In this document: positions 14,333 through 48,700 of the stretch, piece after piece
Position numbering within the stretch: position 1 is the stretch's first letter
How the letters are laid out: every line of letters starts with the position of its first letter
Assembly: GCA_964556655.1 (NCBI GenBank)
Contig: CAZKWY010000003.1
Coordinates: 1-52,705 of the forward strand
Source: an uncultured Candidatus Saccharibacteria bacterium
Lineage (GTDB): Bacteria; Patescibacteriota; Minisyncoccia; Portnoybacterales; UBA2143
Direction: 5' to 3'
DNA: 52,705 nucleotides
Translations under genes and position numbers: made by a program
The notes under the pieces: generated by a model
The model's database searches: none
Seen by the model: the letters and a program-made list of their open reading frames with translations, nothing else
Told to the model about the DNA's origin: nothing

Positions 14333-14347
14333 CCAAGGACTGTCCTT
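14333..14347. repeat. Monomer of the GACWGTC palindromic repeat family
   Basis: CCAAGGACTGTCCTT, intergenic. Confidence 0.7.
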
Positions 14348-14414
14348 AGCCCTTGAAAGAAAAACCCGTCGAGTGAACGGATTTTTTAAAAATCAAACAA
14401 GTTGTTACAAGTTG

Positions 14415-14937
14415 TTAAAGGTCGTATTCATTGGCGGCCACGGCAACAATGTTCACGTTTTCAGGAAGACGGCGAAAATAGTCCACCGCTTCCAATGATT
14501 TTTCGTCTAAAAAGCCGCTTTCTCGCCGTAAAAAACAATACGCGACAAACCGAGCAGATTGACTTTCGTGACCAAAAAGCTCTACTAAAACCTCGCGAAA
14601 AGACTTATCTTGAGAATCGATAAAAGCCTTTCCAATGGCATTAACCAAAGCCCCTATTAGGAGGGCCAAAGCAAAAAACGCGCCCGTTGCGACATTCAGA
14701 AGTCTTTCCCTCTATTATCCTTTCCATCATTTCATGAGCATCTGCCTGCACGCCAATACTTCCATCGGGTGGCATTAACTCAATCTCTCGCCAAACCACC
14801 AAATCATATTCTTTCCCATTTTTTTCTATCTTGCCATCATCTGCCTTAACGGGATACCGCGCATATTATTTATGCCACTCATATTTATTTTTTTTTAATT
14901 TTATTAGCCATCTCATAGTTTTTTCAATTTGTTTCAT
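14415..14937 (-). pseudogene. Fragmentary hypothetical ORF remnants
   Basis: Frame 14937-14641 has one internal TAA (MKQIEK...HK*YARYPVK...) and overlaps a second start-less frame ending at 14415. Confidence 0.3.
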
Positions 14938-14948
14938 GCTTATTAATT

Positions 14949-15672
14949 TTACTTCTTTAAAATTTCTATCTCTTTCTTTAGCTGGTCTATAACATTGCTA
15001 AATTCCATGCTTTCAAAAGCCTTCGGACAAAGTTCAAAACACAAATCTGCTTTTTTATTTTCTAAAAACATTGTAAAAGTATTGGGATCATTCGTAACAG
15101 AAAGATGATCATCTGTCCCGTTCCACCATGAAACATGGAACTGGCGAATATTATTTAGGCTATCTATTAATTTTCTGACTTTTTCATAATCAATCGATCT
15201 TAAAGCATGAGCAATATCAAAACAGAGACCTGGAAATGTATCTAGATTGTCATAACCAACAATGGGGTCAGGCTTTTTTCGGTATAGTGAATATTCTCAA
15301 TAAGAGCTAATGGATATCTGCCAGTTGCATTAAGTGAAATTTTATTGAACAAATTTTTATATGCTAACGAAGCATCTTTTCTTGGAATATGAACAATGAT
15401 ATACTTTGCCCCTATCTCCTTTGCGAGATTATAAATTCTTTCATAATCATCCGGATTATCGCTAAGACCGAAATGGCTATGGACAGAATTAATTTTAACT
15501 TTATATTTTTTTCTAAGCCTTTAAGGTATTCTATATCCCAGCTGTCCCAGTAGGCATTGTCCCCTTCATTCCTTAGCATCAATTCAACGCCATCAAAACC
15601 AGCTAAACTAGCCGCTCTAAAAATGCGGCCTAAGGAATAGGGATATAAACTTCCTGTTGATAATGTAATCAT
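14949..15672 (-). pseudogene. Sugar phosphate isomerase/epimerase (xylose isomerase-like TIM barrel), two frameshifts
   Basis: AGFDGVEL / NSVHSHF...IIVH...LIEN / LCFDIAHA...FHVS...DH...FEL are recovered across three frames; both breaks lie in A runs. Confidence 0.8.
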
Positions 15673-16151
15673 GAAGCGAATTGCTGTTTAACCTTTTTTT
15701 CAGGCAATTCCAATATAGATAATGCTTTGACAAAATTTTTCTCAAAGTTTTTCAAATCATATTTTTTCGCAGTTCTAGTTATAAAATTGCGAAAGCGTCT
15801 TGTCATTAATCCATTTGTCAAAACTTTATATGTGCCTTCTTCTGTCACTCTTATTTTAATTTTGTTGTCTCTAGTAAAATCAATTACTTTCTGAATGTCC
15901 TTATAATTCTTTTCTGTGAGAACTGAATTAATACTAATTTCTATGTTCGCTTCTTTTAGTTGCTCAATATGTTTTTTGATTTTTTCAAATGTTAAGCCGC
16001 ATGGAGATTGTTTGGAAATCATATTTGGTTCAGCTCTATCAAGTCCAACGGTGATATCAAGATTTTTTACTTTTAAAAATGTCTTGATGTGCTTAGGCAT
16101 GAGTATCCCACTTGTGCAAACATCAATCTTTTTCAATCCGAGAGTAGCTGA
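15669..16151 (-). pseudogene. 5'-truncated radical SAM-like protein
   Basis: VCTSG, ITVGLD, ISINSVLTEKN core strands, but no CxxxCxxC; the frame begins at the IS30 end. Confidence 0.6.
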
Positions 16152-16737
16152 ATTCAACCCCTAAGCGCGACACTGAAGGCTTCCAGGGGGGTTTTGTATT
16201 CGAGCAGTTTTCTCGGTCTGCTGTTTAATTCCTGTTCTACTCTCCTAATCTCTCTATTGGGCATTTTAGTAAAATCAGTTCTCTTTGGGAAGTATTCCCT
16301 GATTAAGCCATTGGTGTTTTCATTAGTTCACCTTTCCCATAAGTGATAAGGATTACAGAAAAAGGTAATTGTCTGTCTGGCTTTCAAATAAAGATATTCT
16401 AATTTCTTAACAATGGCTGTTGTGGTAGATCTGCTGGTCTTGTCATTTAATTTGGAGATAAAGACCATTCCGGTTTGTCTTTCGACCAAAGTATTGATTC
16501 CCGGTTTGTTTTCTCTTGATTCAACACTGTCCGATTCCCAGTCGCCGACTCTTCGTCCTTTTTCCACAATATCCGGTCTTTGCTCAATAAAAGCCTCTTT
16601 TGGCTTAAATACTCGTTGGCAGCGCCTGGCGCCCTTCCTGATTCTTCTTTTTCTCTTTCTTCTATGGTTAAATGTTTGTATTTCATGCACTTTGATAATA
16701 CCTCATTTTATCAAAGTGTTGCGCTTACTTATTGAGC
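16152..16737 (-). mobile_element. IS30-family element, internally deleted (non-autonomous remnant)
   Basis: MKYKHLTIEERE, IEQRP..V..RVGDWESD, TLVER, PY..WER*TNENTNGLIREYFPK, LN.RPRK.L.YKTP; imperfect terminal IRs 16152-16174 and 16715-16737 (TCAA....TAAGCGC.ACACT). Confidence 0.9.
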
Positions 16738-16747
16738 TAAAGATCTG

Positions 16748-16792
16748 CCAAGGACTGTCATTCTAGGACTGTCCTTTTTTGACAGTCCTTGG
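16748..16792. repeat. Triplet copy of the GACWGTC palindromic repeat
   Basis: CCAAGGACTGTCA...TGACAGTCCTTGG 13-bp arms; cores at 16753, 16767, 16781. Confidence 0.85.
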
Positions 16793-16795
16793 AGG

Positions 16796-17392
16796 CTATT
16801 TGAAGAAGATGGGAATTTCTAGAGCATCATCGTTTTCAGGCAATCCTGAAGGATTATCTTTGCGCAAGATTAAAAATCCTCGGTCATAGAATTCAGGCTT
16901 CTCAAATTCAAGATCAAGATAGAGTTCAGGCCTCTCAAACTCAAGCTCACATTCAAATTCTACAAAATCTTCTGTCATCCAATCTCCTTGGGCAGTAGCA
17001 TATCTCTCCGCAATGATTAACCCGTCCCAATTTGTCAAAACCACAGGGAAATCGCCTTCAAAAAACCATGTTCCTCTGGCTTCTCCTTCTACCTTTAGCG
17101 GACTTTCTATCTCTTGATCAGGCCTTGGATGATCAAGTCTGATCAAATCGCTTTTTTCTATTTCGTTGCCAATTTCTTCAATGAACATCTTGCCATTAGG
17201 GTCTTGGCATTTTCTTGGACGGGTCTCCACAACTGGATAACCTGCCTCAACGCATTCTGAAAAATTTTCAATTTTTGACTTTTCCTCCAATGGCGCGTTC
17301 TCTTTTTCTTCTTCTTCAAAAAAGATAAAAAAAGTTATTCCGACAGCAAGCGCTACAATAATCGAAATTACAATTATAGTTTGTTTGGTCAT
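16796..17392 (-). CDS. Membrane-anchored Gmad2 immunoglobulin-like domain protein
   Basis: N-terminal TM; NF.EC..AG.P....PR.C; SPL.V.GEARG.WFFEG.FPV; DNPSGLPEND. Confidence 0.8.
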   Translation of the reverse strand: MTKQTIIVISIIVALAVGITFFIFFEEEEKENAPLEEKSKIENFSECVEAGYPVVETRPRKCQDPNGKMFIEEIGNEIEKSDLIRLDHPRPDQEIESPLKVEGEARGTWFFEGDFPVVLTNWDGLIIAERYATAQGDWMTEDFVEFECELEFERPELYLDLEFEKPEFYDRGFLILRKDNPSGLPENDDALEIPIFFK

Positions 17393-17504
17393 ATTTTTAT
17401 TATAGAATTATTTTATATAATCTAAAAATTATCCACAAAACGAAATCCCTTTATATATAATATAATATCAGAAACAAGGAGGAAAAGAAAGGGGGTGAGA
17501 AAAA

Positions 17505-17723
17505 GTGGATAGATTGAACCCAGTAGATTGGATTGCTTTGATATTGGCAACTATTGGAGGATTAAATTGAGGGCTAGTTGGAGTTTTTGATTTTGATCTA
17601 GTGGCCTTGATTCTCGGAGAAATGAGCTTTTTATCGCGAGCGGTTTACACATTAGCGGGAGTTGCGTCTTTGTATTTCTTATTTGTTGTCAAAAACTTTT
17701 CCCGCAAGCAGACCGCTCGATAA
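17505..17723 (+). pseudogene. DUF378 family membrane protein with in-frame TGA
   Basis: GTG start; ...IGGLN*GLVGVFDFDLVALILGE....SRAVY.LAG.AS; TGA at 17568-17570 replaces the conserved Trp of GGLNWGL. Confidence 0.8.
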
Positions 17724-17773
17724 CGCTTAACGAATAGATCTATCATAGCAAACGAAAAAAAACACCAAAAAAA

Positions 17774-17800
17774 AACGCCGCATTAAAGCGGCGTTGTTTT
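17774..17800. terminator. Bidirectional intrinsic terminator
   Basis: AACGCCGC...GCGGCGTT flanked by A and T runs, between convergent genes. Confidence 0.75.
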
Positions 17801-17810
17801 TTAATATTTC

Positions 17811-18056
17811 TTAATATTCCTCGTCAATATATAATTCAGCGCCCTGAAGAGCAAAATCGTCCGCTTCTCTTTTGTTGTCAAAAACTTTTTGCCACACCAA
17901 AGGAGCAATTTCTTTGCTGGGCTGGCCCTTTGTCGGATAAATGCTGGCCCTGGGAACCCAGCGCCCCTTTTCGTCTTGGCAAGAATCTGGTTCAATATAG
18001 TATCCTTGATAAATATTATCGTCAGAATCGTATTTCAATATTTTTCCTTCGGTCAT
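17811..18056 (-). CDS. Small hypothetical protein
   Basis: ATG at 18056 is 7 nt after a TAAAAT -10-like element; globular-looking 81 aa. Confidence 0.55.
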   Translation of the reverse strand: MTEGKILKYDSDDNIYQGYYIEPDSCQDEKGRWVPRASIYPTKGQPSKEIAPLVWQKVFDNKREADDFALQGAELYIDEEY

Positions 18057-18134
18057 TATTGCTATTTTACAACAACCGCTAAAAAGAAACAATGAAAAAA
18101 GCTCGAACGAATCAACGTCCAAGCCTTTAGATAT

Positions 18135-18330
18135 TTAAACAAAAGAATGGTTGCTAATAATAACCAACCCCTTAGAAGAGTCTGGCTTTTCCTTTCCGTT
18201 TCTGTAATGGATTCTAATCTTTTTTGCCAAAATTAAAAACCAAACAATGATAAAACCTCCCAATCCAAATAAGCAATTATTCCATTAGAGAAAAAATTGG
18301 AAGAATCTCTTGACAATGAATGCATGCTTT
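18135..18330 (-). pseudogene. Possible lysophospholipid acyltransferase N-terminal remnant
   Basis: Hand translation ...GFIIVWFLILAKKIRIHYRNGKEKPDSSKGLVIISNHSFV* stops inside an NHxSxxD-like motif; one upstream in-frame TAA. Confidence 0.35.
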
Positions 18331-18400
18331 TTTAATGTGTTTTTAAAGAATTATAAATAAATTTAACAAAAACCAATATCTTTGCCAGCAGACAAAATTG

Positions 18401-18970
18401 CTATAAAAGCAAGGGCGTAATAAAGGCCTCAATGAAGGCCGCTAATAATAAAAGAGGGATTAAAAATTTGCCAAAAAAAATAAAACCGGATAAAATTTCT
18501 TTTTTTACCTCGCCTTCTTTTTTAATTAGTCGGCTCAAAAAAATAAAACCTATCTTTAAGCCGATAGCAGCGCCGATCACTAATACAGGTATTTCTATCA
18601 ATCCATGAGGAAGTACGCCCACAAAAAAAGAATCAAGAGAGAGCCTTTCCTGCCAGATAACAGCAAAAACTCCCAAAAGCATTCCATTAGAGAATAATGA
18701 CAACAGAGGCACAAGACCGAAAAAGAAACCTAAAATAATGGACAAAAGCAAAGAGAAGCTATTGTTAACGAAAATAATGACTGCCAGAGAAAAAGAGCTA
18801 ACATCAAAAACAGGAGAAAACATTTCGCTAAACCTACTAATTATTTCTCTAGCTTTTTCAGGATAGTTCTTGGCAAAAAAATATCCTTCTAAGACAGAAA
18901 TGATAAAAAAAGAAAAAGCGAAAATAATAAATGGCTTGAGAGATCGCAAATATTTTTTATAGTCCATCAT
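18401..18970 (-). CDS. Stage II sporulation protein M (SpoIIM/DUF95) family membrane protein
   Basis: IFVNN, NG..LG, LPHG.IEIP, AA.IEAFITP. Confidence 0.9.
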   Translation of the reverse strand: MMDYKKYLRSLKPFIIFAFSFFIISVLEGYFFAKNYPEKAREIISRFSEMFSPVFDVSSFSLAVIIFVNNSFSLLLSIILGFFFGLVPLLSLFSNGMLLGVFAVIWQERLSLDSFFVGVLPHGLIEIPVLVIGAAIGLKIGFIFLSRLIKKEGEVKKEILSGFIFFGKFLIPLLLLAAFIEAFITPLLL

Positions 18971-19010
18971 TCAAATCATAGCATATTTTTTATTATTGCC
19001 CTAAAAAATA

Positions 19011-19059
19011 AAAAAACCGCCAAGGTTTTTTTAAAGGAGGATTGTTTTTCTTGGCGGTT
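19011..19059 (-). terminator. Terminator-like hairpin
   Basis: AACCGCCAAG/CTTGGCGGTT arms with a T run on the minus strand; large loop. Confidence 0.5.
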
Positions 19060-19104
19060 GCTAAGGTTGAAAGAACTAATCTAGAGAATACTCATCTATA
19101 TTTT

Positions 19105-19133
19105 AAAATAGCAAACTCTAAATTTATTGTCAA
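19105..19133 (-). promoter_or_regulatory. Sigma70-type promoter
   Basis: TTGACA-17 nt-TATTTT with extended TG. Confidence 0.5.
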
Positions 19134-19226
19134 GTATCAAGGTTTTAGACAAGAGCGATTACTACCGAAATACCCCTAATTTCCCCCTTCTAAGGATAGC
19201 CGCCTCATCGCTCTTGTCATATTAAG

Positions 19227-19255
19227 ATACTAACTAAAGAAAAAACTTTTGTCAA
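19227..19255 (-). promoter_or_regulatory. Sigma70-type promoter
   Basis: TTGACA-17 nt-TAGTAT. Confidence 0.55.
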
Positions 19256-19275
19256 TAAAAAATGACAAAAAAATG

Positions 19276-19303
19276 GCCTTTCAAGAATTGCCTTTCAAGA
19301 ATT
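19276..19303. repeat. 14-bp tandem direct repeat
   Basis: GCCTTTCAAGAATT x2. Confidence 0.85.
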
Positions 19304-19369
19304 ATTCTAATAGAAACAGCCCTTATTGACCTAGAAAAGTGTTTTGTGGTAAGCTTGAAAAGATAATCT

Positions 19370-19942: not shown

Positions 19943-20144
19943 CAGACAAAAAATAAGCAGAATTGCCGCTTTCTAAAGAAAGCGTAGGCTTGTTCTGTTT
20001 AACCAGCAAGCCCTGCTTGACAAGAATATTTCTACTCAACCAACCAGTAAAATAGCTAAATATCTCGGAAGATTAAAATCTCTCTTTGCCAAAGGCCAGT
20101 GGCCGAAAAAAGGCCGTTTAGCCTATCTTCCTAAAGTTCTTTCC

Positions 20145-21857: not shown

Positions 21858-21869
21858 AAACAAAAAAAT

Positions 21870-22856: not shown

Positions 22857-22861
22857 TAGGC

Positions 22862-22945
22862 GGGCAAGTGGCGGAACTGGCAGACGCGCTAGCTTCAGGA
22901 GCTAGTGTCCCTTCGGACTTGCGGGTTCGAATCCCGCCTTGCCCA
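22862..22945 (+). tRNA. tRNA-Leu(CAG)
   Basis: GGGCAAG/CTTGCCC acceptor, CTAGC-TTCAGGA-GCTAG anticodon arm, long variable arm, GTTCGAATC; CCA not encoded. Confidence 0.95.
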
Positions 22946-22959
22946 CTCTTTACTAAAAT

Positions 22960-37505: not shown

Positions 37506-38273
37506 TTAACAAAACTCTCCCTTATTAGCCGCATTAATGCTTTCCTGAGTATAGTAATCTAATTTTCGCGCTTGTTCTCTGCTAATTTTTTCGCAAGCAA
37601 AACCCCAATGGAACGAAATAAGATGGCCCTTCCTAAGCCCTTTTAAAAAGCTTTTTCCTCCAAGCTGATAAGTAATTTCGCCCCTTACCGTCTTTCCCAG
37701 ACAAATTTTTTCATTTTCTAAGATTAAAGGCCGATAAGCAACCACGATATTTTTCTTTTCTACTTTCTCAACTCTTCCCCAGTTAATACGGCATAAATCC
37801 ATACTAGCTAGAGTGTGAGCGATATCTAAATAGCCTGTCCTTTTCCAAACGCCAAGAACATGAAAATTATGGTGGGGCTTTGGCTTTAAAGATACTTTCT
37901 CAACCAACCTTCTAAAAGCAGGCAAGGCCATCTTCTTTTTCATCTCTAGGCTATCGGATAAATGCCTGTAAAAATTACTCTGATTAGCGTTTTCCAAAAG
38001 AGCATTGCCGATCCAATAAGCCTCTACCACTTTTTCATCAAAAGGATCTCTAATTCCATTAGCGCGAGCGATAAACTTAAGATAAGGATAAAGAGTTTGA
38101 AATTCTTTTAAAATCAAGGACAGTCCTTGGTTAGCTTCTCTTCTCTGGCAGTAGTAAAAAAGGTCTTGATTTTTGTCTGGACCGCAAAAAGTCAACCGGT
38201 TGGGCATAAAGGCATACCGCGCGCACCTTATCATTCCCTTTTCGCTAGACGAGATTTTGCTCCGCTTGATCAT
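37506..38273 (-). CDS. DUF6390-like protein with a HypC-like C-terminal region
   Basis: ARYAF.PN.L.FCGP, YPYL..IA, DPFD..VVEAYWIGN, PHH.FHV, C.I.WG, HWG.ACE. Confidence 0.75.
   Translation of the reverse strand: MIKRSKISSSEKGMIRCARYAFMPNRLTFCGPDKNQDLFYYCQRREANQGLSLILKEFQTLYPYLKFIARANGIRDPFDEKVVEAYWIGNALLENANQSNFYRHLSDSLEMKKKMALPAFRRLVEKVSLKPKPHHNFHVLGVWKRTGYLDIAHTLASMDLCRINWGRVEKVEKKNIVVAYRPLILENEKICLGKTVRGEITYQLGGKSFLKGLRKGHLISFHWGFACEKISREQARKLDYYTQESINAANKGEFC
38115..38129. repeat. Monomer of the GACWGTC palindromic repeat inside a CDS
   Basis: CAAGGAC-A-GTCCTTG, translated as QGLSL. Confidence 0.55.
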
Positions 38274-39449: not shown

Positions 39450-40784
39450 CTATTGTTTTTTAAATACTTTCTCCACTTGAGAGCCGGCCCGACCGTCGGA
39501 AAATCTTGTTTCTATCCGCTGGCCCTTTTTTAACTGGCTAACATGCTTGATAACCTTGCCCGAGCTTGAATCAGAAACAATGCTATATCCCTGCCTCAAC
39601 TTAAGCGCTGGGCTAGCCAAAAAGATTTTTTCTTTTTCTCTGGCTAGTTTTTGCCTGATTTTTTCCAGCCAAGAAAATCCGTTTTGGTGAAGCTCTTCTA
39701 AGTATTCTAGAGTATCTGACTTTTGTTGTCTAATAAGCCCTTCTATTTTGTAAAGATTGTTTAAAAAAAGCGCTTCAGTCTGATAAAAATTTTGAAAATA
39801 TTCCCTAAAAGAATTGTTCATAGCGTCAGCTAGATAAAGAAAGGATTCTTTTTTGCTTTCTATTTCCCCTGTGATTGCTTTTTCTATTTGTTCTTCTAAA
39901 AAGACTGTCCTTTGCTTGGCTAAAACAATTTTTTCCTTAATAGCCGCTGTCATGCTTTTTTCAAAAACAGGCATCTGCGACTGCGCCATTCGCCAAGGAT
40001 CGCTCAAAATTCTCGCCGCGTCCGTAGGAGTGGAAGCTCGCACATCAGCTACATAATCAGCTATGGTTTCGTCGCTTTCATGGCCTACGCCGCAAACGAC
40101 AGGCAGGCGGGAAGCAAAAATTGACCGCGCCACCGTCTCTGAATTAAAAGGCTGAAGACTTTCCCAACTTCCTCCTCCTCTGATTAAAATCAAAGCGTCT
40201 ATTTTCTTAGCGCTTTGATTAAACCAATCAATGGCTCGCTCAATTTCTTCTTCTGCCGATAAGCCCTCTACCCTGACATCATAGAAAAATATCTCAAAAT
40301 TAAAAGCGCCTAAATGCTTGATAAAATCAGGCAGCGCTCCTCGTCCGTATTGAGAAGTAATCAAGCCAATGGTTCGGCAAAAAGGCGGCAGCTTCCTTTT
40401 CCTCTCTAGGGCGAAAAAACCGTCTTCCCCCAAACGTTTCTTCAGCGCTTCATAGGCCCGCCTTAAAGCGCCTTCGCCAACCAGCCCTACTTTTTCTACC
40501 TGCAGAGTAAGGTCGCCTCTTTTAGGATAAACTTGGCAAGTTCCTTCAATCTTAACTTCTTGCCCGGGCCCTAGCTGGCAGCCGCTTTTATCTAAGTTTC
40601 TCTGCCAGGCAAAGCATTTCAAAACTCCCTCTTTTTTCTTGTCAAGCAACGAAAAAATAGTGTAATTAGGATAACGATTGATCTTTTCGCCAACTTCTCC
40701 TTGGACTATCACCCGATGCCTGATTAGGCTGTTAATAAATTCTATCAGTTCTTTAACGGAAAAAATTTTTTCTTGGTCTAACAT
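39450..40784 (-). CDS. xseA: Exodeoxyribonuclease VII large subunit
   Basis: OB fold, IGLITS, RGGGS.E.L..FN.E, GVGHE.D, TPT.AA, L.QGYS. Confidence 0.95.
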   Translation of the reverse strand: MLDQEKIFSVKELIEFINSLIRHRVIVQGEVGEKINRYPNYTIFSLLDKKKEGVLKCFAWQRNLDKSGCQLGPGQEVKIEGTCQVYPKRGDLTLQVEKVGLVGEGALRRAYEALKKRLGEDGFFALERKRKLPPFCRTIGLITSQYGRGALPDFIKHLGAFNFEIFFYDVRVEGLSAEEEIERAIDWFNQSAKKIDALILIRGGGSWESLQPFNSETVARSIFASRLPVVCGVGHESDETIADYVADVRASTPTDAARILSDPWRMAQSQMPVFEKSMTAAIKEKIVLAKQRTVFLEEQIEKAITGEIESKKESFLYLADAMNNSFREYFQNFYQTEALFLNNLYKIEGLIRQQKSDTLEYLEELHQNGFSWLEKIRQKLAREKEKIFLASPALKLRQGYSIVSDSSSGKVIKHVSQLKKGQRIETRFSDGRAGSQVEKVFKKQ

Positions 40785-40802
40785 TATTGAAATTTATTTA
40801 TT

Positions 40803-40967
40803 TTATTCCTTCTTTTTCTTTCTCGCCCAATTGGTCATACTAGAAAAACCTAAAAACCCCAAGCCAAGAGGAAATAATACCAGAAAAGGAAGAAAAGGCA
40901 AAAATATCCCCGCTAAGCCGACTAACACAAGGATAACGCCAATAATTTTTTTAAATACTCTTCTCAT
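40803..40967 (-). CDS. Small membrane protein (54 aa), absent from the ORF track
   Basis: MRRVFKKIIGVILVLVGLAGIFLPFLPFLVLFPLGLGFLG...KKKKE*; -10-like TGGTATGAT upstream. Confidence 0.7.
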   Translation of the reverse strand: MRRVFKKIIGVILVLVGLAGIFLPFLPFLVLFPLGLGFLGFSSMTNWARKKKKE

Positions 40968-41084
40968 TAGCTTCTTTTTATCATACCAGAAAGAACAAAG
41001 TGGAACAAAAAAATCAATAAATCAGGCCCTGACTTTTTAAAAAATATATTCCCAATAAAATTTATTTCTGTTATAATAGAATCA

Positions 41085-41303
41085 ATGTGTTTAGCTACTC
41101 CTGCCAAAGTAATAACCATTAAAAAAGATTGGGCCCGAGTAAAATCAGGTGACCATATCCATAGAGTTAATCTAGGCCTTTTGAAAAATGTAAAGAAAGG
41201 CGATTATTTAATTGCGCACGGAGAGCTGGCTATTAATAGGCTTAATAAAAAAGAAGCTGAAAAAATCATTAAACTGATTGAAAATTACCAAACTGACCAA
41301 TAG
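41085..41303 (+). CDS. hypC: Hydrogenase assembly chaperone HypC/HybG/HupF
   Basis: MCLA.P.KV, V.KGDYL..H. Confidence 0.92.
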   Translation: MCLATPAKVITIKKDWARVKSGDHIHRVNLGLLKNVKKGDYLIAHGELAINRLNKKEAEKIIKLIENYQTDQ

Positions 41304-41306
41304 ACT

Positions 41307-41332
41307 AAAACAGCGGACTAGTCCGCTGTTTT
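41307..41332. terminator. Bidirectional intrinsic terminator
   Basis: Perfect palindrome AAAACAGCGGACTAGTCCGCTGTTTT between hypC and the large subunit. Confidence 0.8.
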
Positions 41333-41360
41333 TGATAACCCGCGACACAAGGCCATAAAG

Positions 41361-42587
41361 CTAATGGACTGAGCAAGTGATACAAGGATCGTAAGCGCGC
41401 ACTAGCATTACTAAAAGCCGTTCCAATTCTTTTCGCGAGCGGTTTTTTGTTTGATCAAGAAGCGCTTGGGCGCTTTTTTCAATGGAAGTAAGGTTTTGCA
41501 CGGTCGGAGTAATAATGTTGGCTTCTTTAATCAAACTTTCTGCTGAAGCTGGCTCAGTTTTATCCAAAATCACTTCATGGTAAAGCCCTCCGCGAGGAGC
41601 TTCTATGACGCCAATACCCTTAAAAGGCGCTTTTGATCCAGGTTTTTTAATCGGCTCTTCTAAGCTGCCTTTTAAAATGCTTTTGACAGTTTTTTCCGCT
41701 TCCTTGTAATAATAAAGAATTTCTATTGCTTGAGCCAGATTATTGTGAAAAGGATTGGCTAAATCAAGCCCGTATTTCTTATCATAATTTTGATACACAG
41801 CCAAGCGCGCCAGAGCGCCTACTATCATTTCTTCTCCCCTGTATTTGCCAAACTTCGCTGTAGAATAACTTCTCACTTCTTCCTCAATATCTTTTTTATA
41901 GTTGTTAACCGGAGAAAATTGCTTCTTTCGCGGGCTAATAGAAGATACTGTAGCAATGGAATCTTTTTCCTGTGCTGCCATGATAAGCTCTACGCGCAAA
42001 GGCGGGTAATCAAGCTTGCTGGCTAACGCTAGCGATCTTTCAGCCGCTTTTCTTGTTTTTCGAAGTTTATCGAGCAAAATTTCTAGCTTTTCTTTATTCG
42101 GCATTTTATAAAATCCGCCAATGGCAGAGCTGGTTGGATGAGTATGACGGCCGCCAGCCAGATCCACAATCATATCCGAAACCTCTTTAAGCGCCAGAGC
42201 GTCCTTAAAGGCCGGAGGATTTTTTTTAGCCAGTTCTGTCGCTCGATCAATGCCTAAATAGTCAGGCAAAGATAAAAAGAATAAATGAAGGGTGTGGCTT
42301 TGAATCATCTGACCGCACTGCATTAAGTAGCGCAAAGAAGATGCCTGACGGCTAGGCTTAATGGCTAAAGCGTTTTCCAGAGCGTTTAAAGAAGCAAGGT
42401 TATGGGCCGTAGGACAAACTCCACAAATACGCGGCGTAATCCAGTGCATCTCTTGAGCGGTTCTATCAACCAGCATGCCTTCAAACAGCCTTTCGCCTTC
42501 ATAAATATTAAGTTTAACTTGGCCCTTTTTCCAGTCAATAGTCAAATTGCCATGTCCTTCAATTTTTGCGATAAAATCTTCTTTCAT
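41361..42587 (-). CDS. [NiFe]-hydrogenase large (alpha) subunit, group 3b-like
   Basis: IEGHG, L1 RICGVCPTAH, EAPRG, TPT, L2 YDPCITCSVH followed directly by stop. Confidence 0.95.
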   Translation of the reverse strand: MKEDFIAKIEGHGNLTIDWKKGQVKLNIYEGERLFEGMLVDRTAQEMHWITPRICGVCPTAHNLASLNALENALAIKPSRQASSLRYLMQCGQMIQSHTLHLFFLSLPDYLGIDRATELAKKNPPAFKDALALKEVSDMIVDLAGGRHTHPTSSAIGGFYKMPNKEKLEILLDKLRKTRKAAERSLALASKLDYPPLRVELIMAAQEKDSIATVSSISPRKKQFSPVNNYKKDIEEEVRSYSTAKFGKYRGEEMIVGALARLAVYQNYDKKYGLDLANPFHNNLAQAIEILYYYKEAEKTVKSILKGSLEEPIKKPGSKAPFKGIGVIEAPRGGLYHEVILDKTEPASAESLIKEANIITPTVQNLTSIEKSAQALLDQTKNRSRKELERLLVMLVRAYDPCITCSVH

Positions 42588-42589
42588 TT

Positions 42590-43336
42590 TTAATGGTTAT
42601 TTTTATTTTTTTTCATAGCCTTATTCAAAAACATGGAAAAATAGCGGTCTATTTCTTTTTTGTCAGTAATTTGGCTAAGAGCTTTCATCAAATTATCTAT
42701 TTCTGGCTCTTCGCGCAAGCCAAAGCATCCATAACAAGGTGAACCGCCTGAAATGCATATTGCCCCGCATCCTCCTTGAGTGATAGGGCCGAGACAGGGC
42801 TTTCCTTCTATTAAACGGCAGCGATTGCCCGCCATCTTACACTCTAGACAAACTGAATAAGAGCGGTATTTTGGCATTTTGCCGGCCAAAAGGTCCTCCA
42901 TCACTCTCAATACTTCTTCGCCATTAACCGGACATCCATGAACAAGAAAATCAACTTTGACATAAGCCGAGAGAGGAAGAGCGTCAATCCCCCGGGGGCG
43001 ATATTCACTACCATATATCTTCTTATACCACTTTTTTCTTTCTTTTTTATCAAGAATGGCCGGAATGCCTCCTAGAGTCGCGCAAGTGCCAAGGCCAATA
43101 ATCATCTTAGAGGTTTTCCTTAGCTTTTTTAGCAGGCTAACCTCATGGCCGGTGATAGGCGTCCCTTCAATAATAGTAATGTCAAAAGGGCCTGGCTGAT
43201 TGTTTTCTTGGCCTAAGCGCCAATTAATAATATGGACTCTTTTTTCAAGAGCTAATAACTTTTCCCTCAATCCGACCAGCTCTACCTGGCATCCTTCGCA
43301 GTCTGTAAAGTCATAGATGGCAATTTTTGGCTTCAT
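42590..43336 (-). CDS. [NiFe]-hydrogenase small (delta) subunit
   Basis: CEGC, IEG, GTCA..GG, GCP, C.EC, CLGP.T..GC.A.C, C.GC. Confidence 0.92.
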   Translation of the reverse strand: MKPKIAIYDFTDCEGCQVELVGLREKLLALEKRVHIINWRLGQENNQPGPFDITIIEGTPITGHEVSLLKKLRKTSKMIIGLGTCATLGGIPAILDKKERKKWYKKIYGSEYRPRGIDALPLSAYVKVDFLVHGCPVNGEEVLRVMEDLLAGKMPKYRSYSVCLECKMAGNRCRLIEGKPCLGPITQGGCGAICISGGSPCYGCFGLREEPEIDNLMKALSQITDKKEIDRYFSMFLNKAMKKNKNNH

Positions 43337-43341
43337 AAAAA

Positions 43342-44166
43342 TTAATCCCAATTTTTATCTATTTCATCGAAATAAAAGACAGGCCCATCCTGGCATACGT
43401 ATTTGTCTCCAGTTAAGCAATGCTGGCATTTGCCTACTCCACATTGCATCTTTCTTTCCATGCTGACGAAAATGCGACGATCAGAAATGCCCAATGGATG
43501 AAGTACTTTTCCCAGAGCGTCCATCATGGGACCCGGCCCGCACATAGAAGCTACCGCGTTTTTGGGATCGATCTTAATTTCACTGATTAATTCCGTAACA
43601 AGGCCAACATGACCTTCCCAGTCCTTAGTTGGCTCATCAACTGTCAAAAGCACTTTAATGCTTTTGCTCCATTCTTTGAGCTTATTTTTCATTAAGAGAT
43701 CGTCTGGCGTTCGCGCCCCATAAATGAGATAAACATTATTAAACTTATCTCGATTAGCAATAATATATTCGATCAAAGAGGCAATGGGCGGAATACCGCA
43801 TCCGCCAGTCGCCATCACCATATCTTTGCCAGCAATAAAATCCAAAGGGAAGCCATTGCCATAAGGGCCGCGCAGAAAAATTTCGTCTCCTTTTTTTAAA
43901 TTATGCATCGCATTAGTAAGCGTGCCAGCTTTTCTAACCGCTATTTCGAAATAAGAATCTTCGTAAGGAGAAGAAGAGACGCCAAAAGGCGCCTCTCCAT
44001 AACCAAAATGACTGACCAAGATAAATTGCCCCGGCACAAAAGCCAATCCTTGTCCGTTTTTATCAAATAATCCTTTTTCTTTTTTCAAACGAAAAAGCTT
44101 AACTGTTTCAGAAAGATCTTGCGTTTTGACAATAATGACCTTAAATGGCTGATAAATATTTTTCAT
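43342..44166 (-). CDS. Hydrogenase gamma subunit (FAD/NAD(P)-binding, 2Fe-2S)
   Basis: PGQF, RGPYGNGF, GGCG..P, CGP..M, MQCGVGKCQHC...C.DGPV. Confidence 0.92.
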   Translation of the reverse strand: MKNIYQPFKVIIVKTQDLSETVKLFRLKKEKGLFDKNGQGLAFVPGQFILVSHFGYGEAPFGVSSSPYEDSYFEIAVRKAGTLTNAMHNLKKGDEIFLRGPYGNGFPLDFIAGKDMVMATGGCGIPPIASLIEYIIANRDKFNNVYLIYGARTPDDLLMKNKLKEWSKSIKVLLTVDEPTKDWEGHVGLVTELISEIKIDPKNAVASMCGPGPMMDALGKVLHPLGISDRRIFVSMERKMQCGVGKCQHCLTGDKYVCQDGPVFYFDEIDKNWD

Positions 44167-44175
44167 AGAGATATT

Positions 44176-45102
44176 TTAATAATTACTGACTGCTTTCTTG
44201 TAATCGGCCACGATCCTTTTTAAAACTTCTTCTATTTTTATCCCTGCCGGACAAAAATTAGTACAACGAACGCATCCTACGCACTGCGCCTTGCCATATT
44301 CCTTATAGGCACGAACAAATTTATGATAATACCAGTTATAGTAACGTTCTTTAATGGTTTTGTGGAAATTATGGCCGCCAGAAATCTTAGCAAAGTCAGG
44401 CAAGGTACAAGCATCCCAATAGCGGCAACGAGAACACTCCTTATCATCTATGCGAACTCTATCCTCGAAAGAAAAACAATGACACAGCGGACAAACATAG
44501 GTACAATTACCACATCCAAGACATTTTTCTGCCAGCTCGTCCCATATTTTATGTTCGGCCCTCCAAGACCAAGCTACCGCCTCTGCCAGCAACTCAGCAT
44601 CTAAAAGCATTTTCCTTAGCTCGCTTAACTGGGAATAGTTTCCTTTTGCTTTTTTAGGCGCCGATTTCCTAAAAAACTTTCCCTTGGCAATTTCCTTTCC
44701 TTTTTTGGTTAAAACCATAGCTTCATATTCCTGAGCGCTAATTTTTTTAAAGACGACGTCGCCTCCCGGCGCTATTTTGAAATCATCATCAGTCAGACCT
44801 ATGAGAAGAGATTGGTTTCTTCTTCGCCAATAATAGAAATCCTGCTGAGGTTTTTTCATAATTTCATCCAATTGAGTCATCGCCTCAAGATCAACAAGAT
44901 TCAAGCCAAAAACAGCAATCTTTTCTTGGTGCTCGGGAACTTTTAATCGACCGCCTTTTTTGTCAAAAACAAAAGTTTTTTCTTTGGGCGGAAAAAAATA
45001 TTGTTTTGGCGGCATATATGTTTCTCTAGCGTCTATTACTCTATATTTCTTGCCCAACTCGTTAAGCCAATCTTTAATTTTGCTTTCTTTAATAACTAAC
45101 AT
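44176..45102 (-). CDS. Hydrogenase beta subunit (4Fe-4S dicluster)
   Basis: CLGCGNCTYVCP.C.C, R.WD.C, HKF, CVGCVRC...CP. Confidence 0.92.
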   Translation of the reverse strand: MLVIKESKIKDWLNELGKKYRVIDARETYMPPKQYFFPPKEKTFVFDKKGGRLKVPEHQEKIAVFGLNLVDLEAMTQLDEIMKKPQQDFYYWRRRNQSLLIGLTDDDFKIAPGGDVVFKKISAQEYEAMVLTKKGKEIAKGKFFRKSAPKKAKGNYSQLSELRKMLLDAELLAEAVAWSWRAEHKIWDELAEKCLGCGNCTYVCPLCHCFSFEDRVRIDDKECSRCRYWDACTLPDFAKISGGHNFHKTIKERYYNWYYHKFVRAYKEYGKAQCVGCVRCTNFCPAGIKIEEVLKRIVADYKKAVSNY

Positions 45103-45134
45103 TATTTTTATTATATCACACAACCCCTAAAAAC

Positions 45135-45168
45135 AAAAAAACCTGGCCGGATTGCTGTCCGACCAGGC
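45135..45168 (-). terminator. Intrinsic terminator
   Basis: CCTGG.CGGA...TCCG.CCAGG hairpin with a T run on the minus strand. Confidence 0.65.
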
Positions 45169-45174
45169 GTTTGT

Positions 45175-45687
45175 TTAGGCATGTTCCCTCCTTTTTTTGG
45201 CATTAACATAGTTGCCGTACAAAACGATCTTTCTAACCCGCCTATTCTTTTTAGAATCAAGGAAACAAACATTATCCTTTATTACCACGATACCTGCTCT
45301 AACCATCTCTTCAAAAAGAACAAAGCGAACATCCTCTTCTCTAATTTCTAATCTAACTATTCTCCTAACAAGCTCATCCGCATTTATTTTTTTCACGCCA
45401 AGAACTCTAACAATAGAAAGAGCGATTAGATGGACCAAATGATGGCATTCTCCGCAGAGAAGATGAATTGCTTCGGGACAGAGATAAGAGATACCGCGAT
45501 GTCCAGAAAAATCCCAATGATGTTTGAAAAAAGTTTCTGGATCTCCTCTTGCGCCACAAGAGGGCAAACAGCAGCATGACCTGCCATAATCCAAAGCAGA
45601 AAAAATTTTTACTTGCGCCGAAGTCAGCCCGCGAGTGCGGCGCTTTCTGATAGAAGTCCTTCTGGCAGCTCTGTTTTTTAAACTCAT
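45175..45687 (-). CDS. Hypothetical protein with a degenerate HNH-like zinc motif
   Basis: C....CG, HH, LLCGECH..VH; strong AAGGAGG RBS. Confidence 0.55.
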   Translation of the reverse strand: MSLKNRAARRTSIRKRRTRGLTSAQVKIFSALDYGRSCCCLPSCGARGDPETFFKHHWDFSGHRGISYLCPEAIHLLCGECHHLVHLIALSIVRVLGVKKINADELVRRIVRLEIREEDVRFVLFEEMVRAGIVVIKDNVCFLDSKKNRRVRKIVLYGNYVNAKKRREHA

Positions 45688-45748
45688 AGCAGCCTCCTTT
45701 TGCTATGTTAAAACTGAATAAATTAGGAAAGAACTTTAAAGTCCGAGA

Positions 45749-46447
45749 TTAAAGCGAAAGCTTTTCCTCAATAGCTCTTTTAAATTTTTCGTATGGCTGA
45801 TTGCCAACAAGTTTTTCTTCTCCAACAAAGAAAGTTGGCGTACCCGAAACTCCATTTTCATCGGCTTGGACATACCAGCTTTGCGCTAGTGACTGATAGG
45901 CGCTGTCCTCAAGACAAGCGCTAAACCTATCCTGGTTCAAACCAATTTTTTGAGCAATGCCTTTCAAGTCCTCAACAGCGCGAATCTCGCTGGCATGATC
46001 AAAAAGATATTGGTTGTAAGAAACATAGCCACCCTGCTCTTGAGCGCACAGAATAGAGACAGAAACCGTTACAGGAGATAAAAATCTGCTAATTAACTTT
46101 ACTTTGCCAGTTTTAATATAATCTTCTATCAATAAAGGACGTGTTTCTTCGTGAAAAGAAACACAATGACCGCAAAAATGGCTGGAATATTCTATTATCG
46201 TCACTGGAGCCTCTTCGTATCCTAAAACAAACTCTCCTTTGTCGTTGATATAGTTCGGTAAATCTTGGTAAGAAGGAATTTCCTGGTTATTATTTTCTTG
46301 ATTTTGCTCTTCTTTTTGCCCTGTTTGCGATCCTTCCAGCACAGAAGCAGATTGATCATCACTGCTGTTGTTATTAGAGTTGTCATACCAAACAAGCAGA
46401 CCAAAACCAGTTAAAATTAATGCTAATAAAATTACTTTTTTTACCAT
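45749..46447 (-). CDS. DsbA family thiol-disulfide oxidoreductase
   Basis: LG...APVTIIEYS...CGHC, GV.GTPTF, G.QP. Confidence 0.92.
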   Translation of the reverse strand: MVKKVILLALILTGFGLLVWYDNSNNNSSDDQSASVLEGSQTGQKEEQNQENNNQEIPSYQDLPNYINDKGEFVLGYEEAPVTIIEYSSHFCGHCVSFHEETRPLLIEDYIKTGKVKLISRFLSPVTVSVSILCAQEQGGYVSYNQYLFDHASEIRAVEDLKGIAQKIGLNQDRFSACLEDSAYQSLAQSWYVQADENGVSGTPTFFVGEEKLVGNQPYEKFKRAIEEKLSL

Positions 46448-46468
46448 GTTTTTAATATATCACTAAAA

Positions 46469-47761
46469 TTAAGCTAAGGCAAATTTTTTAGCTTCTTTTA
46501 AAATTCTCCCTACTCCCGTTTTTTTTATTTTTCTTTTCTCCATAATAATTTTTCCGTCAACAATAACTGTCTCTACATCGCTCCCCTTGGCAGAATAGAC
46601 CAAGTGAGAAACCGCATGATGCAAAGGCAAGAGATGGGCCTTCTCAAAAGAAAGAATAATAATATCAGCTTTTTTGCCCGGCTCTAAAGAGCCCAGCTCT
46701 TTTTCCTTTCCTAAGGCTCTGGCACCGTTAATTGTCGCCATATCTAACGCTGTCTGAGCTATCGCCACAGTCGGATCAGACCAATGGCTTTTATGGATTA
46801 GAGCGGCTATTTTCATTTCTTCAAACATATCCAAATTATTATTAGAGCAAGAACCGTCTGTGCCTAAGCTAATATTAACGCCTTTCTTTTGCATCGCAGG
46901 CAAAGGCATGGTGCCGGAAGCTAGCTTCATATTAGAAGCTGGACAATGGCTAACTGAAGCGCCTGATCGGGCTAAAAGGCTAATTTCTTTTTTGCTCGGC
47001 CAGCAGACATGAGCCAAAATAGTCTTCGGCGTCAAAATGCCATTTTCAAACATCACTTCTAGCGGCCTTTTCTGGTATTTTTTAAAGCAAAAGGAGATTT
47101 CTTCCTTGGTCTCTAAAAGATGAGTGGTCAACAGCCATCCTTTTTTGTCAGCCATTTGCCGGCATCTTTTGTAAGTCCTCAAAGAAGTCGTCTGCATCAT
47201 ATGGGGCGCTATCGCCCCTTCCACCAAGGACTGTCCTTCTAGGACAGTCCTTGAAGGACAGTCCTTGAGAGCTTGGGAAGAATTTTTAAAGGCAAAGGTG
47301 GGCATATCCAAAACACCGCTTCCTAAAATTCCCCGCAAGCCCATCTTTTTGGCCGCTTTTGCCACTTCGTCCTCGAAATAGTAGAAATCAACAAAGCAGG
47401 TAGTGCCCGACTCAATCATTTCCACCATAGACAACAAAGAGCCCCAAAGGACTTCTTTCCGGCTAAACCTCGACTCAGCAGGATGGATTTTATTAAACCA
47501 CCATTTTTGCAGATCCATATCATCAGCGTAGCCACGCAGAAGAGACATGGCTAAATGAGTATGGGTATTAATCAGGCCAGGCATTACTAAGCACTCTTTT
47601 GCGTCAAAAATCTTTTTGGCTTTTTGGCCAAATTCTTTTTCCACCGTTTTAGTCGTCCCTACTGCCTTAATTAAATCTCCTTCAATAACAAGAGCGCCTC
47701 TTTCAATAAGACGCCGTTTTCTATCTTGGGTTATTAAAATGGCGTTCTTGATTAAAATCAT
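46469..47761 (-). CDS. Amidohydrolase, MTA/SAH deaminase (MtaD)-like
   Basis: PGLINTHTH, APH, H..ET, HCP.SNMKLASG, LGTDG..SNN. Confidence 0.88.
   Translation of the reverse strand: MILIKNAILITQDRKRRLIERGALVIEGDLIKAVGTTKTVEKEFGQKAKKIFDAKECLVMPGLINTHTHLAMSLLRGYADDMDLQKWWFNKIHPAESRFSRKEVLWGSLLSMVEMIESGTTCFVDFYYFEDEVAKAAKKMGLRGILGSGVLDMPTFAFKNSSQALKDCPSRTVLEGQSLVEGAIAPHMMQTTSLRTYKRCRQMADKKGWLLTTHLLETKEEISFCFKKYQKRPLEVMFENGILTPKTILAHVCWPSKKEISLLARSGASVSHCPASNMKLASGTMPLPAMQKKGVNISLGTDGSCSNNNLDMFEEMKIAALIHKSHWSDPTVAIAQTALDMATINGARALGKEKELGSLEPGKKADIIILSFEKAHLLPLHHAVSHLVYSAKGSDVETVIVDGKIIMEKRKIKKTGVGRILKEAKKFALA
47225..47267. repeat. Triplet copy of the GACWGTC palindromic repeat inside a CDS
   Basis: Cores at 47229, 47243, 47257; translated as KDCPSRTVLEGQSL. 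Confidence 0.85.
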
Positions 47762-48639
47762 CCTATGGTCAAACTTCTTTTTTGTCCCTCCCCCCTGTTG
47801 TATCCTCCAAGACTTCCGTTAGAACAAACGACCCGATGGCAAGGGATGTTAGGGCAGTAATTTTTACCAAGCGCCTGGCCAACCGCCCGAAAGGCGCGAG
47901 GAGAGCCTGCAATCCGCGCCACTTGGTGATAAGTCATTGCTTGTCCCCGAGGAATTTTCTTTACAATATAGTAAATTTTTTCTTGAAAAGACAAACAATT
48001 AAAAACCGGCTGAAAGCTTTGCCGATGCGCAGGGCAAGGGCCAATTTCTTGAAGTTTTTTTAAATGGGAATAAGTTCCATATCCTTTATGCGAAGAAAAA
48101 CCATAACCCGGATATTTTTTATCCAACCTTTCCATCAAGCGATCGCGGCTAACCTTAGCCAAAATAGAAGCTAAAGAAAGCAAAAATAATTTTTGATCGC
48201 CTTTCACTACCGCCTCTTGAGGAAGAGCTAGACGAGAAAGAGACGCCCTGCCATCTAAAAACAAAAAACCTGGACAAATATCCAGCTTTTTTAAACATCG
48301 CCACCAAGCTAGCTTGGTGGCCTGGCCAATGTTAATTTTATCAATAACAGAAGACCCAACAGAACTAACCCGCCACTTTATTTGCGGAATATCTTTGATT
48401 GCTTCAAAAATCTCTTCTCTTTGCTTAGCTGAAAGATGCTTTGAATCTCTAAACCCGTTCTCCAAGAAAAGTAATTTCTGAAATAATTTAACCACTGAAG
48501 CATCAATTTGAGCCGAGCCTTTTATCGCCGCTATTGCGGCCGTTACCGGTCCGGCCAGAGGTCCGCGCCCTGCTTCATCAATGCCAGCCGCCACTTGACA
48601 ACCTTGTCTAAATGCTTTTCTTTCCCAAACAGAAAACAT
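47758..48639 (-). CDS. rnhB: Ribonuclease HII fused to an O6-alkylguanine-DNA alkyltransferase C-terminal domain
   Basis: GIDEAGRGPLAGPV, DSK.L, KGD, KGYGT; then IP.G...TY..VA...G.P.A.RAVG.A and PCHRVV. Confidence 0.9.
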   Translation of the reverse strand: MFSVWERKAFRQGCQVAAGIDEAGRGPLAGPVTAAIAAIKGSAQIDASVVKLFQKLLFLENGFRDSKHLSAKQREEIFEAIKDIPQIKWRVSSVGSSVIDKINIGQATKLAWWRCLKKLDICPGFLFLDGRASLSRLALPQEAVVKGDQKLFLLSLASILAKVSRDRLMERLDKKYPGYGFSSHKGYGTYSHLKKLQEIGPCPAHRQSFQPVFNCLSFQEKIYYIVKKIPRGQAMTYHQVARIAGSPRAFRAVGQALGKNYCPNIPCHRVVCSNGSLGGYNRGEGQKRSLTIG

Positions 48640-48653
48640 CCCCGCCTTTACAC

Positions 48654-48700
48654 CCCAAGGACTGTCATTTTAGGACAGTCCTAAAATGACAGTCCTTGGG
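48654..48700. repeat. Triplet copy of the GACWGTC repeat; 47-nt palindrome
   Basis: Perfect 23-bp arms around A48677; cores at 48660, 48674, 48688. Confidence 0.9.

Follow-up and report, generated by a model that had tools for sequence, protein, structure and literature searches.

Introduction

In the repeat–transposase systems of Proteobacteria, made up of repetitive extragenic palindromic sequences (REPs), bacterial interspersed mosaic elements (BIMEs), REP doublets forming hairpins (REPINs) and tyrosine transposases associated with REPs (RAYTs), the Y1 HUH transposase is present in one copy with an abundant palindromic repeat on either side, and repeat and transposase co-evolve in a lineage-specific manner with vertical inheritance at a fixed locus, according to the portions of PMC2817692 and PMC5581495 considered here. 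Work on RAYT–REP and REPIN systems has been almost confined to large proteobacterial genomes, where their standing as replicators that were domesticated long ago and are passed on vertically is under debate. A similar arrangement is described here from a 52,705-nt stretch (the window; contig C3, CAZKWY010000003.1) of a metagenome bin of an uncultured Candidatus Saccharibacteria bacterium (genome G000), which was compared with 40 relatives (also given G numbers). The window carries dispersed palindromic repeats built on GACWGTC cores, and these are, with a probability of roughly 0.85, the REP (BIME/REPIN-like) population of a RAYT–REP system in Patescibacteria (candidate phyla radiation, CPR), whose transposase, P0001, is encoded elsewhere in the genome.

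The likeness to the proteobacterial systems covers the single-copy Y1 HUH transposase between abundant repeats, the lineage-specific pairing of repeat and enzyme, and vertical descent at a fixed locus; the regular unit spacing, the alternating orientation and the hairpins in single-stranded DNA recall BIMEs. The features given in the portions of Nunvar 2010 and Bertels 2017 considered here are present, the curated hidden Markov model (HMM) cut-off excepted. The system differs in its 0.7-Mb Patescibacteria host and in a protein that scores just under the NCBIfam RAYT cut-off. Whereas the proteobacterial REP is 20–40 nt long with an unpaired GTAG tag, and the REPIN consists of two inverted REPs and a spacer, the REP described here consists of a single nested hairpin that carries AGG/CCT boxes at both its base and its apex and has an internal period of 13–15 nt. 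Copy number is low (26 arrays), although the genome is 6–9 times smaller. A literature search returned nothing tying RAYTs or REPs to CPR genomes, a point on which the taxon map in Supplementary figure 7 of PMC5581495 could bear; CPR phyla are not mentioned in the HUH survey PMC6006769.

Enrichment and genome-wide distribution of the repeat

Dinucleotide shuffling predicts 1.35 occurrences of the core GACWGTC in the window, where 19 were found; a count of 19 was reached in none of 100 shuffles. Nine of the 19 form three runs with 14-nt steps, and eight others are isolated and near background. The longer box AGGACWGTCCT, with at most one mismatch, occurs 12 times (0.35 expected). The initial annotation had named five copies, with three cores at 14-nt spacing in the triplets, and all of them were found where it had placed them; the core starts (16753/16767/16781, 47229/47243/47257 and 48660/48674/48688) step by exactly 14 nt throughout. 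The copies are as follows.

16748–16792, no strand assigned: REP triplet with arm GGACTGTCA, apex GGACTGTCC and arm TGACAGTCC; spacers ATTCTA and TTTTTT, non-complementary
47225–47267, minus strand: REP triplet in coding frame within an amidohydrolase gene (46469–47761, minus; 430 aa)
48654–48700, no strand assigned: REP triplet in an operon-like gap, a perfect 47-nt palindrome (23+1+23), as the initial annotation had also stated
14333–14347, no strand assigned: solo unit CCAAGGACTGTCCTTAG, with both array ends round one AGGACWGTCCT box (14336–14346)
38115–38129, minus strand: solo box AAGGACAGTCCTTGG, with AGGACWGTCCT at 38117–38127, within a DUF6390 gene (37506–38273, minus)

The suggestion that these copies belong to a genome-wide family was borne out. 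In the whole assembly (713,875 bases in 39 contigs, 40% GC, rated 93% complete), AGGACWGTCCT occurs 52 times against 0.20 expected in 20 third-order Markov simulations. Similarly, GACWGTC occurs 149 times, with 46 neighbour distances of exactly 14 nt and nine of 28 nt, whereas the same 20 simulations gave no 14-nt core pair; the phasing is thus found outside the window too. With a looser core, 26 arrays of 2–7 units were counted (107 units, 1,475 bases), together with 10 solo cores, the commonest array sizes being three units (eight arrays) and six units (six arrays). The array count is a lower bound, as contig ends fall within 20 nt of three arrays. The end of contig C5 (41386–41450) overlaps the start of contig C13 (1–57) inside a REP doublet, and the two contigs are probably adjacent, judging from this overlap.

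The region is present in three DNA sequencing runs of one microbial-mat study, and no RNA run is listed for it. Logan contigs of the three runs span the arrays at 47225 and 48654 without differences, and the contigs break at repeats. The array at 47225–47267 is bridged by an independent contig with no difference, and the one at 48654–48700 by contigs of two further samples. Logan depth peaks at the repeats, with values of 29 and 41 compared with about 6–7 elsewhere. That the pattern arose by chance, by misassembly or as a CRISPR-like array might be argued from the origin of the genome as a metagenome bin and from the arrays close to contig ends, but the enrichment lies far above Markov expectation and arrays recur in the independent Logan contigs of three runs and in the bins of other projects. 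Chance and assembly artefact are refuted by these observations. A CRISPR array was likewise rejected, since the period is 14 nt, the units are inverted and the spacers, 5–6 nt long, come from a few recurring types, none of them unique.

The transposase and its flanking arrays

The initial annotation had proposed that a RAYT encoded elsewhere, flanked by the same units, might have spread the repeat, and such a gene was found on contig C32 with arrays on both sides.

C32:1878–2474, minus strand: Y1/HUH transposase gene encoding P0001, 198 aa, on a 2.5-kb contig
C32:2484–2538: array beginning 9 nt upstream of the P0001 ATG and reaching the contig end
C32:1852–1892: array covering the last codons (K-D-C-P) and the stop of P0001

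It is the only match to Pfam Y1_Tnp (PF01797) in the whole genome (51.5 bits), and a 16-mer that flanks it occurs 23 times in G000. The sole NCBIfam match of P0001 was the REP_Tyr_transpos equivalog NF047646 (72.2 bits). No match to transpos_IS200 (NF033573) was obtained at E ≤ 0.01, and several near-identical copies of the gene were also not found; as a control, the classical IS200 TnpA of G004 scored 102.5 bits on transpos_IS200 and showed no BLASTP similarity to P0001. The only PDB sequence match was 4ER8, Escherichia coli TnpA-REP (E 0.006), in which the HUH and Y-x-x-x-N-P motifs line up with those of P0001, and H63, H65, Y123, H125, N127 and P128 are invariant among 19 homologues (19 of 20 sequences were aligned, L047 being left out because of a stop inside it). 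For the AlphaFold model of P0001 (pLDDT, the predicted local distance difference test, 88.4), Foldseek ranked 4er8_A first (E 1.4e-7, TMt 0.71), and the transposases of IS608 and ISDra2 came behind it. By its sequence matches and predicted fold, P0001 is RAYT-like and not IS200-like.

Orthologues of P0001 were found in 11 of the 40 relatives, at 52–66% identity. The same sigma-factor gene lies downstream of the RAYT gene in all 12 loci, G000 included, from 12 genera, with a nucleotidyltransferase gene between the two in five loci; the common neighbour places the RAYT gene at a fixed chromosomal locus, and a single neighbourhood in 12 of 12 loci indicates long vertical descent. These data bear on the possibility that the transposase is an ordinary selfish insertion sequence (IS) of IS200/IS605 type and the arrays its derivatives, comparable to miniature inverted-repeat or palindrome-associated transposable elements (MITEs/PATEs), after recent invasion and not domestication. 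The Y1 HUH fold, the score under the RAYT cut-off and the classical IS200 transposases present in the same bacterial family (G001, G004) are compatible with it. Nevertheless, the gene is single-copy, has no transpos_IS200 match, is accompanied by no tnpB seen on its 2.5-kb contig and keeps the same neighbours at all 12 loci across the 12 genera, so that recent invasion is very improbable. P0001 has its Y1 HUH fold in common with the IS608 and ISDra2 transposases (PDB 2a6m, 2xm3) and would, like them, recognise hairpins on single strands; those elements are multi-copy and autonomous with distinct left and right ends, unlike the single-copy, syntenic P0001 without a transpos_IS200 match.

Two frames of this kind are interrupted. 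The orthologue of G020 (C1:160809–161369) has one in-frame TAG in a 425-codon open frame, and an IS200-type transposase of G001 (C2:42480–42845) contains a single in-frame TGA; each stop could mark a pseudogene, a recoded codon or an error of sequencing.

Cognate repeat families in relatives

Palindromic arrays were found on both sides of at least 10 of the 11 orthologues, with a core specific to the genus. An abundant repeat family of its own was found in each of the six RAYT-positive relatives tested. Their cores and counts are given below, together with those of G008, in which no RAYT was found.

G022: core AGGCCGGACCT; 70 copies in its own genome, none in four other genomes
G009: core TGGAGCWGCTCCA; 39 sites in its own genome, 0–1 in the other genomes tested
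G011: core AAGGAACGTCCTT; 22 copies in its own genome, 0–1 in the other genomes tested
G002: one-mismatch variant of the G022 core; 87 copies in its own genome
G003: one-mismatch variant of the G022 core; 86 copies in its own genome
G016: G000 family in its GGGACWGTCCC form; 81 matches in its own genome
G008: G000 family in its GGGACWGTCCC form; 69 matches in its own genome

The remaining 38 relatives have 0–2 matches to the pattern of the G000 family. Repeat counts are at background in G001, which belongs to the genus of G022 and in which no RAYT orthologue was found; G024, also without a RAYT found, has three copies of the AGGAACGTCCT core, two of them in ksgA. CRISPR, a DNA-uptake sequence and a restriction site were dropped as explanations, the core changing by genus and always bracketing the transposase gene. 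The nearest homologue loci come from Patescibacteria-group and 'Candidatus Saccharibacteria' bins, and more distant homologues from Doudna-, Davies-, Levy- and Curtissbacteria, among other phyla; in 67 of the 77 more distant loci for which both flanks could be compared, at least three 11-mers recur from one flank to the other.

In G000 (KDCP*) and G016 (RDCP*) the RAYT gene ends inside the first REP unit, which takes in its final four codons and its stop. The RAYT 3' ends of G022 (SECP*) and G009 (RDMP*) are degenerate and GGACTGTCC-like, although the genome-wide cores of these two differ, and resemble the remains of an earlier repeat family. G003 and G020 carry, beside their own main family, a few hairpins cored by GGACWGTCC with other spacings (20–40 nt), and this core may be ancestral in the bacterial family.

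Architecture of the element

The initial annotation had described three cores in each triplet; a single nested palindrome accounts for all three, as its two arms and its apex. The family unit is a hairpin of 41–47 nt, 5'-(CC)AAGG-arm, an A/T-rich spacer, an AGG-N5-CCT apex, a second spacer and arm'-CCTT(GG)-3', with the C-rich CCAA usual before the element and TTGG often after it. When 32 triplets were oriented by their central base, one build emerged, with arm GGACTGT(C/A)A, spacer TT(C/T)TA, apex GGACWGTCC, a second spacer of TAGAA, TAAAA or TTTTT, and arm T(G/T)ACAGTCC. The three cores fall at 14-nt steps because the arms in the G000 genus share the sequence of the apex (GGACWGTCC). Symmetry is centred on the W of the middle core, and T,A,A and T,T,A triplets therefore represent one element in its two orientations. 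In 11 cases the spacer is T5 (T6 counting the adjoining base), giving a stem followed by a T-run on one strand. In relation to REPINs, the triplets are long hairpins composed of inverted sub-units; doublets, however, are triplets placed head to tail, joined via CCTT-C/G-AAGG.

As single-stranded DNA, each of the three window triplets folds up as a single long hairpin, with dG between −15 and −25 kcal/mol and z between −5.7 and −11.5; the values were −15.4/−15.9 kcal/mol (z −5.7/−6.8) for 16748–16792, and −25 kcal/mol (z −10.3), with 22 pairs, for 48654–48700. Nine representative hairpins of 39–43 nt from seven genera are paired at 18–21 of 19–21 positions; a MAFFT alignment of the hairpins was asymmetric and was replaced by pair counts anchored at the ends and the centre. 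In these nine hairpins, AGG/CCT is invariant at the base (positions 2–4) and at the apex (3–5 nt off centre), while stem positions 5, 7 and 9 each show all four Watson–Crick pair types, and positions 10 and 11 three pair types plus some mismatches. Across genera the AGG boxes are 13–15 nt apart, which generalises the 14-nt phasing.

The portion of PMC3733652 used here describes the GTAG and CGTC superfamilies of REPs as short palindromes, often dimerised or clustered, some of them intragenic and coding for 20–30 residues, the GTAG ones being tied to tyrosine transposases. The present elements resemble them in being short, clustered palindromes and differ in that a tag is found at the ends of none of the 26 arrays, the conserved boxes being the paired AAGG...CCTT.

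Genomic context and empty sites

Most arrays lie in very short intergenic gaps, some of them operon-like, and the gene contexts are convergent, tandem, divergent and intragenic. The triplet at 16748–16792 is intergenic, 5 nt off the stop of a gene with a Gmad2 domain (16796–17392, minus) and 59 nt off the start of an open reading frame (ORF; 16328–16690, minus). The triplet at 48654–48700 is placed 14 nt before the ATG of an RNase HII–Ogt fusion gene (47758–48639, minus) and 6 nt after the stop of a 2-hydroxyacid dehydrogenase gene (48707–49666, minus). The solo unit at 14333–14347 is also intergenic, between a Peptidase_C39_2 gene (13508–14302, minus) and an ORF (14415–14669, minus).

The initial annotation had proposed comparison with relatives for presence and absence, and such differences were found. 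The gap that holds the 48654–48700 element is 67 nt long in G000 and 4 nt in G005; the orthologous gap is also free of repeats in G016 (168 nt) and in G008, where two small ORFs stand instead. The site of the 47225–47267 triplet is repeat-free in eight of eight amidohydrolase orthologues. The solo box at 38115–38129, counted as a monomer copy in the initial annotation, lies on conserved codons (N-Q-G-L-S-L, compared with QGLNL in relatives) with no indel; it is no insertion, and has arisen either by chance or by micro-conversion.

The arrays might instead be primarily host elements, such as phased sites for a dimeric protein, mRNA-stabilising hairpins or terminators, to which the transposase is only incidentally linked. 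Such a role would suit the very short and operon-like gaps, the stem and T-run formed by the 11 T5 spacers and the maintenance of the system at one locus in 12 genera with streamlined genomes; moreover, REPs elsewhere bind proteins, and roles in termination and mRNA stabilisation have been suggested in the portions of PMC2817692 and PMC3733652 used here. However, a core that varies by genus always brackets the transposase gene of that genus, the arrays occur in convergent, tandem, divergent and intragenic contexts alike, and relatives have no such element in the orthologous gaps. Of 20 terminator-like sites at 40000–52705, none coincides with either of the two arrays there, and no Rfam family was matched, the two matches in the window both being tRNAs. 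The host-element explanation is accordingly unlikely. A phased protein-binding site, which had been offered as a second possibility, could be a secondary role but leaves unexplained why each genus-specific core brackets its own transposase. Intrinsic termination was rejected for the window arrays, the scan having flagged no array at 40000–52705 and the T-run at 16748–16792 not being oriented to the genes.

Apart from the repeats, tRNA-Leu(CAG) and tRNA-His(GTG), at 22862–22946 and 52581–52656, are the only Rfam/ARAGORN matches of the window. The fusion gene at 47758–48639 (minus) joins RNase HII (Pfam, residues 18–211) to the C-terminal DNA-binding domain of O6-methylguanine-DNA methyltransferase (217–290), and the fusion aligns along its length in G001, G003, G005, G016 and G022.

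Copies within genes

The triplet at 47225–47267 is not extragenic: it is read in frame within the 430-aa amidohydrolase and encodes K-D-C-P-S-R-T-V-L-E-G-Q-S-L. The Amidohydro_1 Pfam domain runs across it unbroken (residues 58–406, one stretch). All eight orthologues without the repeat have an unrelated K...L segment of 15 residues where G000 has the 14 encoded by the REP (net −1 codon), so the triplet has replaced a variable loop and not lengthened it. Two of the 26 arrays of G000 are in-frame and intragenic, the second lying in ksgA/rsmA.

C1:31482–31564: in-gene array of six units encoding 29 residues, within ksgA/rsmA (C1:31177–32046)

In G016, six of the 26 arrays examined are in frame within the rpoC, lepA, tsaD, miaB-like radical-SAM, FemAB and UPF0102 genes, and four of these six are spanned by single Pfam domains (RpoC domain 5, TsaD, Radical_SAM and UPF0102). 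At five of the six sites the G000 orthologues have gaps of 4–18 residues, and the FemAB copy replaces a segment with no change in length. Intragenic REPs are known in other bacteria (PMC3733652, in the portion considered). Little intergenic space is available (about 90% coding), and this is why some copies remain in frame in protein loops that tolerate them. A close parallel for such copies is the Rickettsia palindromic elements (RPEs), to which PMC3733652 refers. RPEs are also in-frame palindromes in conserved genes of a reduced genome that leave the genes unbroken; unlike RPEs, the present elements have a cognate transposase and are shorter (42–84 nt), and the KsgA loop is filled by different families in different genera.

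Repeated occupation of the KsgA loop

The loop in question is a surface loop of KsgA, the 16S rRNA dimethyltransferase; defined as the segment between GD(I/V)L and K(V/L)(V/I)ANLPYY, it was compared in 30 genomes (loci L149–L178). It is 33–48 nt long in 17 of them and its length is divisible by three in all 30. An in-frame palindrome of at least 15 pairs was found in nine genomes (G000, G003, G008, G009, G017, G020, G022, G024 and G026), and it resembles the REP family of its own genome in G000, G008, G009, G017, G020 and G022; the core of the G024 palindrome is of the G011 type. The element begins at the same point in six genomes, behind the fifth codon of the loop. The loop palindrome is present in six of the 11 genomes with a RAYT orthologue and in three of the 19 in which none was found, and within one genus the loop is occupied in G024 and empty in G007. 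A single-gene KsgA tree was too weak for counts of gain and loss (13 of 27 inner branches open, bootstrap not settled); it shows only the interleaving of occupied and empty loops (G000/G013, G008/G016, G017/G011 and G024/G007).

The loops of G032, G033 and G040, which belong to other families of the same order, are long, with inserts of 87–138 nt and other hairpins (examples being GTCATTCC...GGAATCCAGG and CCCGGG..CCCGGG), which may be another repeat family. Among REP-free loops, that of G016 has 51 nt with four tandem TTTTCAA and that of G015 three tandem ACGAAAT, both in frame. From these loops, it seems that almost any sequence is tolerated there.

The re-use of sites raises a further possibility, in which REP sites are long-lived landing pads that are overwritten in place, essential genes included, by whichever REP the RAYT currently recognises. 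This reading, which is tentative and on balance doubtful, is drawn from the re-use of the KsgA loop (the nine palindromes among 30 genomes and the shared fifth-codon start in six), from the RAYT–sigma gap, which is occupied in all genera by different sequences, from the GGACTGTCC-like RAYT C-terminus kept in G022 and G009 after a switch of REP family, and from the amidohydrolase (G000, −1 codon) and FemAB (G016, none) copies, which replace sequence and do not lengthen it. If true, a domesticated HUH transposase would be carrying out templated replacement of hairpin-bounded patches and rewriting protein loops in ultra-small genomes.

Proposed mechanism and weight of the evidence

By analogy with E. 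coli TnpA-REP, the RAYT would bind the single-stranded hairpin and then cut and rejoin it; the basis for this step is the biochemistry of that enzyme, in the portions of PMC3479197 and PMC8266576 considered here and the title of 4ER8. The AGG/CCT boxes are the probable read-out for binding. Elements would be copied to new sites, preferentially beside or in place of existing elements, and the CCTT-C-AAGG junctions and the re-use of sites would reflect such insertion or replacement. Slippage between 14-nt units may add or remove units.

Several results weigh against the RAYT–REP reading. P0001 falls below the curated cut-off of NF047646 (72.2 compared with 80 bits), with 63.0, 69.8 and 78.3 bits for three orthologues, and its gene lies on a 2.5-kb contig of a metagenome bin, linked to the genome by the shared repeats and by synteny in relatives. 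In G008, no Y1 transposase was found (96% complete, 40 contigs) despite 69 repeat matches. The apex has the same orientation in both RAYT-flanking arrays. GTAG, CTAC, CGTC or GACG was found within 8 nt outside either end in none of the 26 arrays, which places the family outside both REP superfamilies of Di Nocera 2013, and neither a target-site duplication nor a conserved unpaired tag was seen, the CCAA and partial TTGG flanks only extending the palindrome. Arm position 8 in G000 is often mismatched, A opposite G (compared by eye); the covariation within the genome is therefore weak and no compensatory claim is made. Finally, no transposition event was observed, and the Logan contigs of three runs gave no empty-site or unit-number variant, although such contigs drop rare variants. 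Against these stand the enrichment, the RAYT with its flanking arrays and the empty sites, all of which came out in favour of the REP/REPIN-like non-autonomous element that the initial annotation had proposed.

Implications

The system stands apart in its CPR host, in its nested hairpin of three boxes whose AAGG/CCTT ends are paired, and in the repeated filling of a single protein loop. In practical terms, the repeats break CPR assemblies (three arrays at contig ends, the RAYT on a 2.5-kb contig) and can be misread as gene fusions or odd loops. The genus-specific pairs of repeat and transposase, on one architecture, are a natural specificity series, in which the invariant AGG/CCT, set against covarying stems, points to the bases read by the enzyme. 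With the in-frame copies in rpoC, lepA, tsaD, ksgA and other genes, Rickettsia is joined by another clear case, the second, in which palindromic repeats shape the proteins of reduced genomes. The presence of a complete system at one locus in at least 12 genera with episymbiont-type genomes of 0.5–0.9 Mb and about 90% coding density argues that it is tolerated or useful even where streamlining is extreme.

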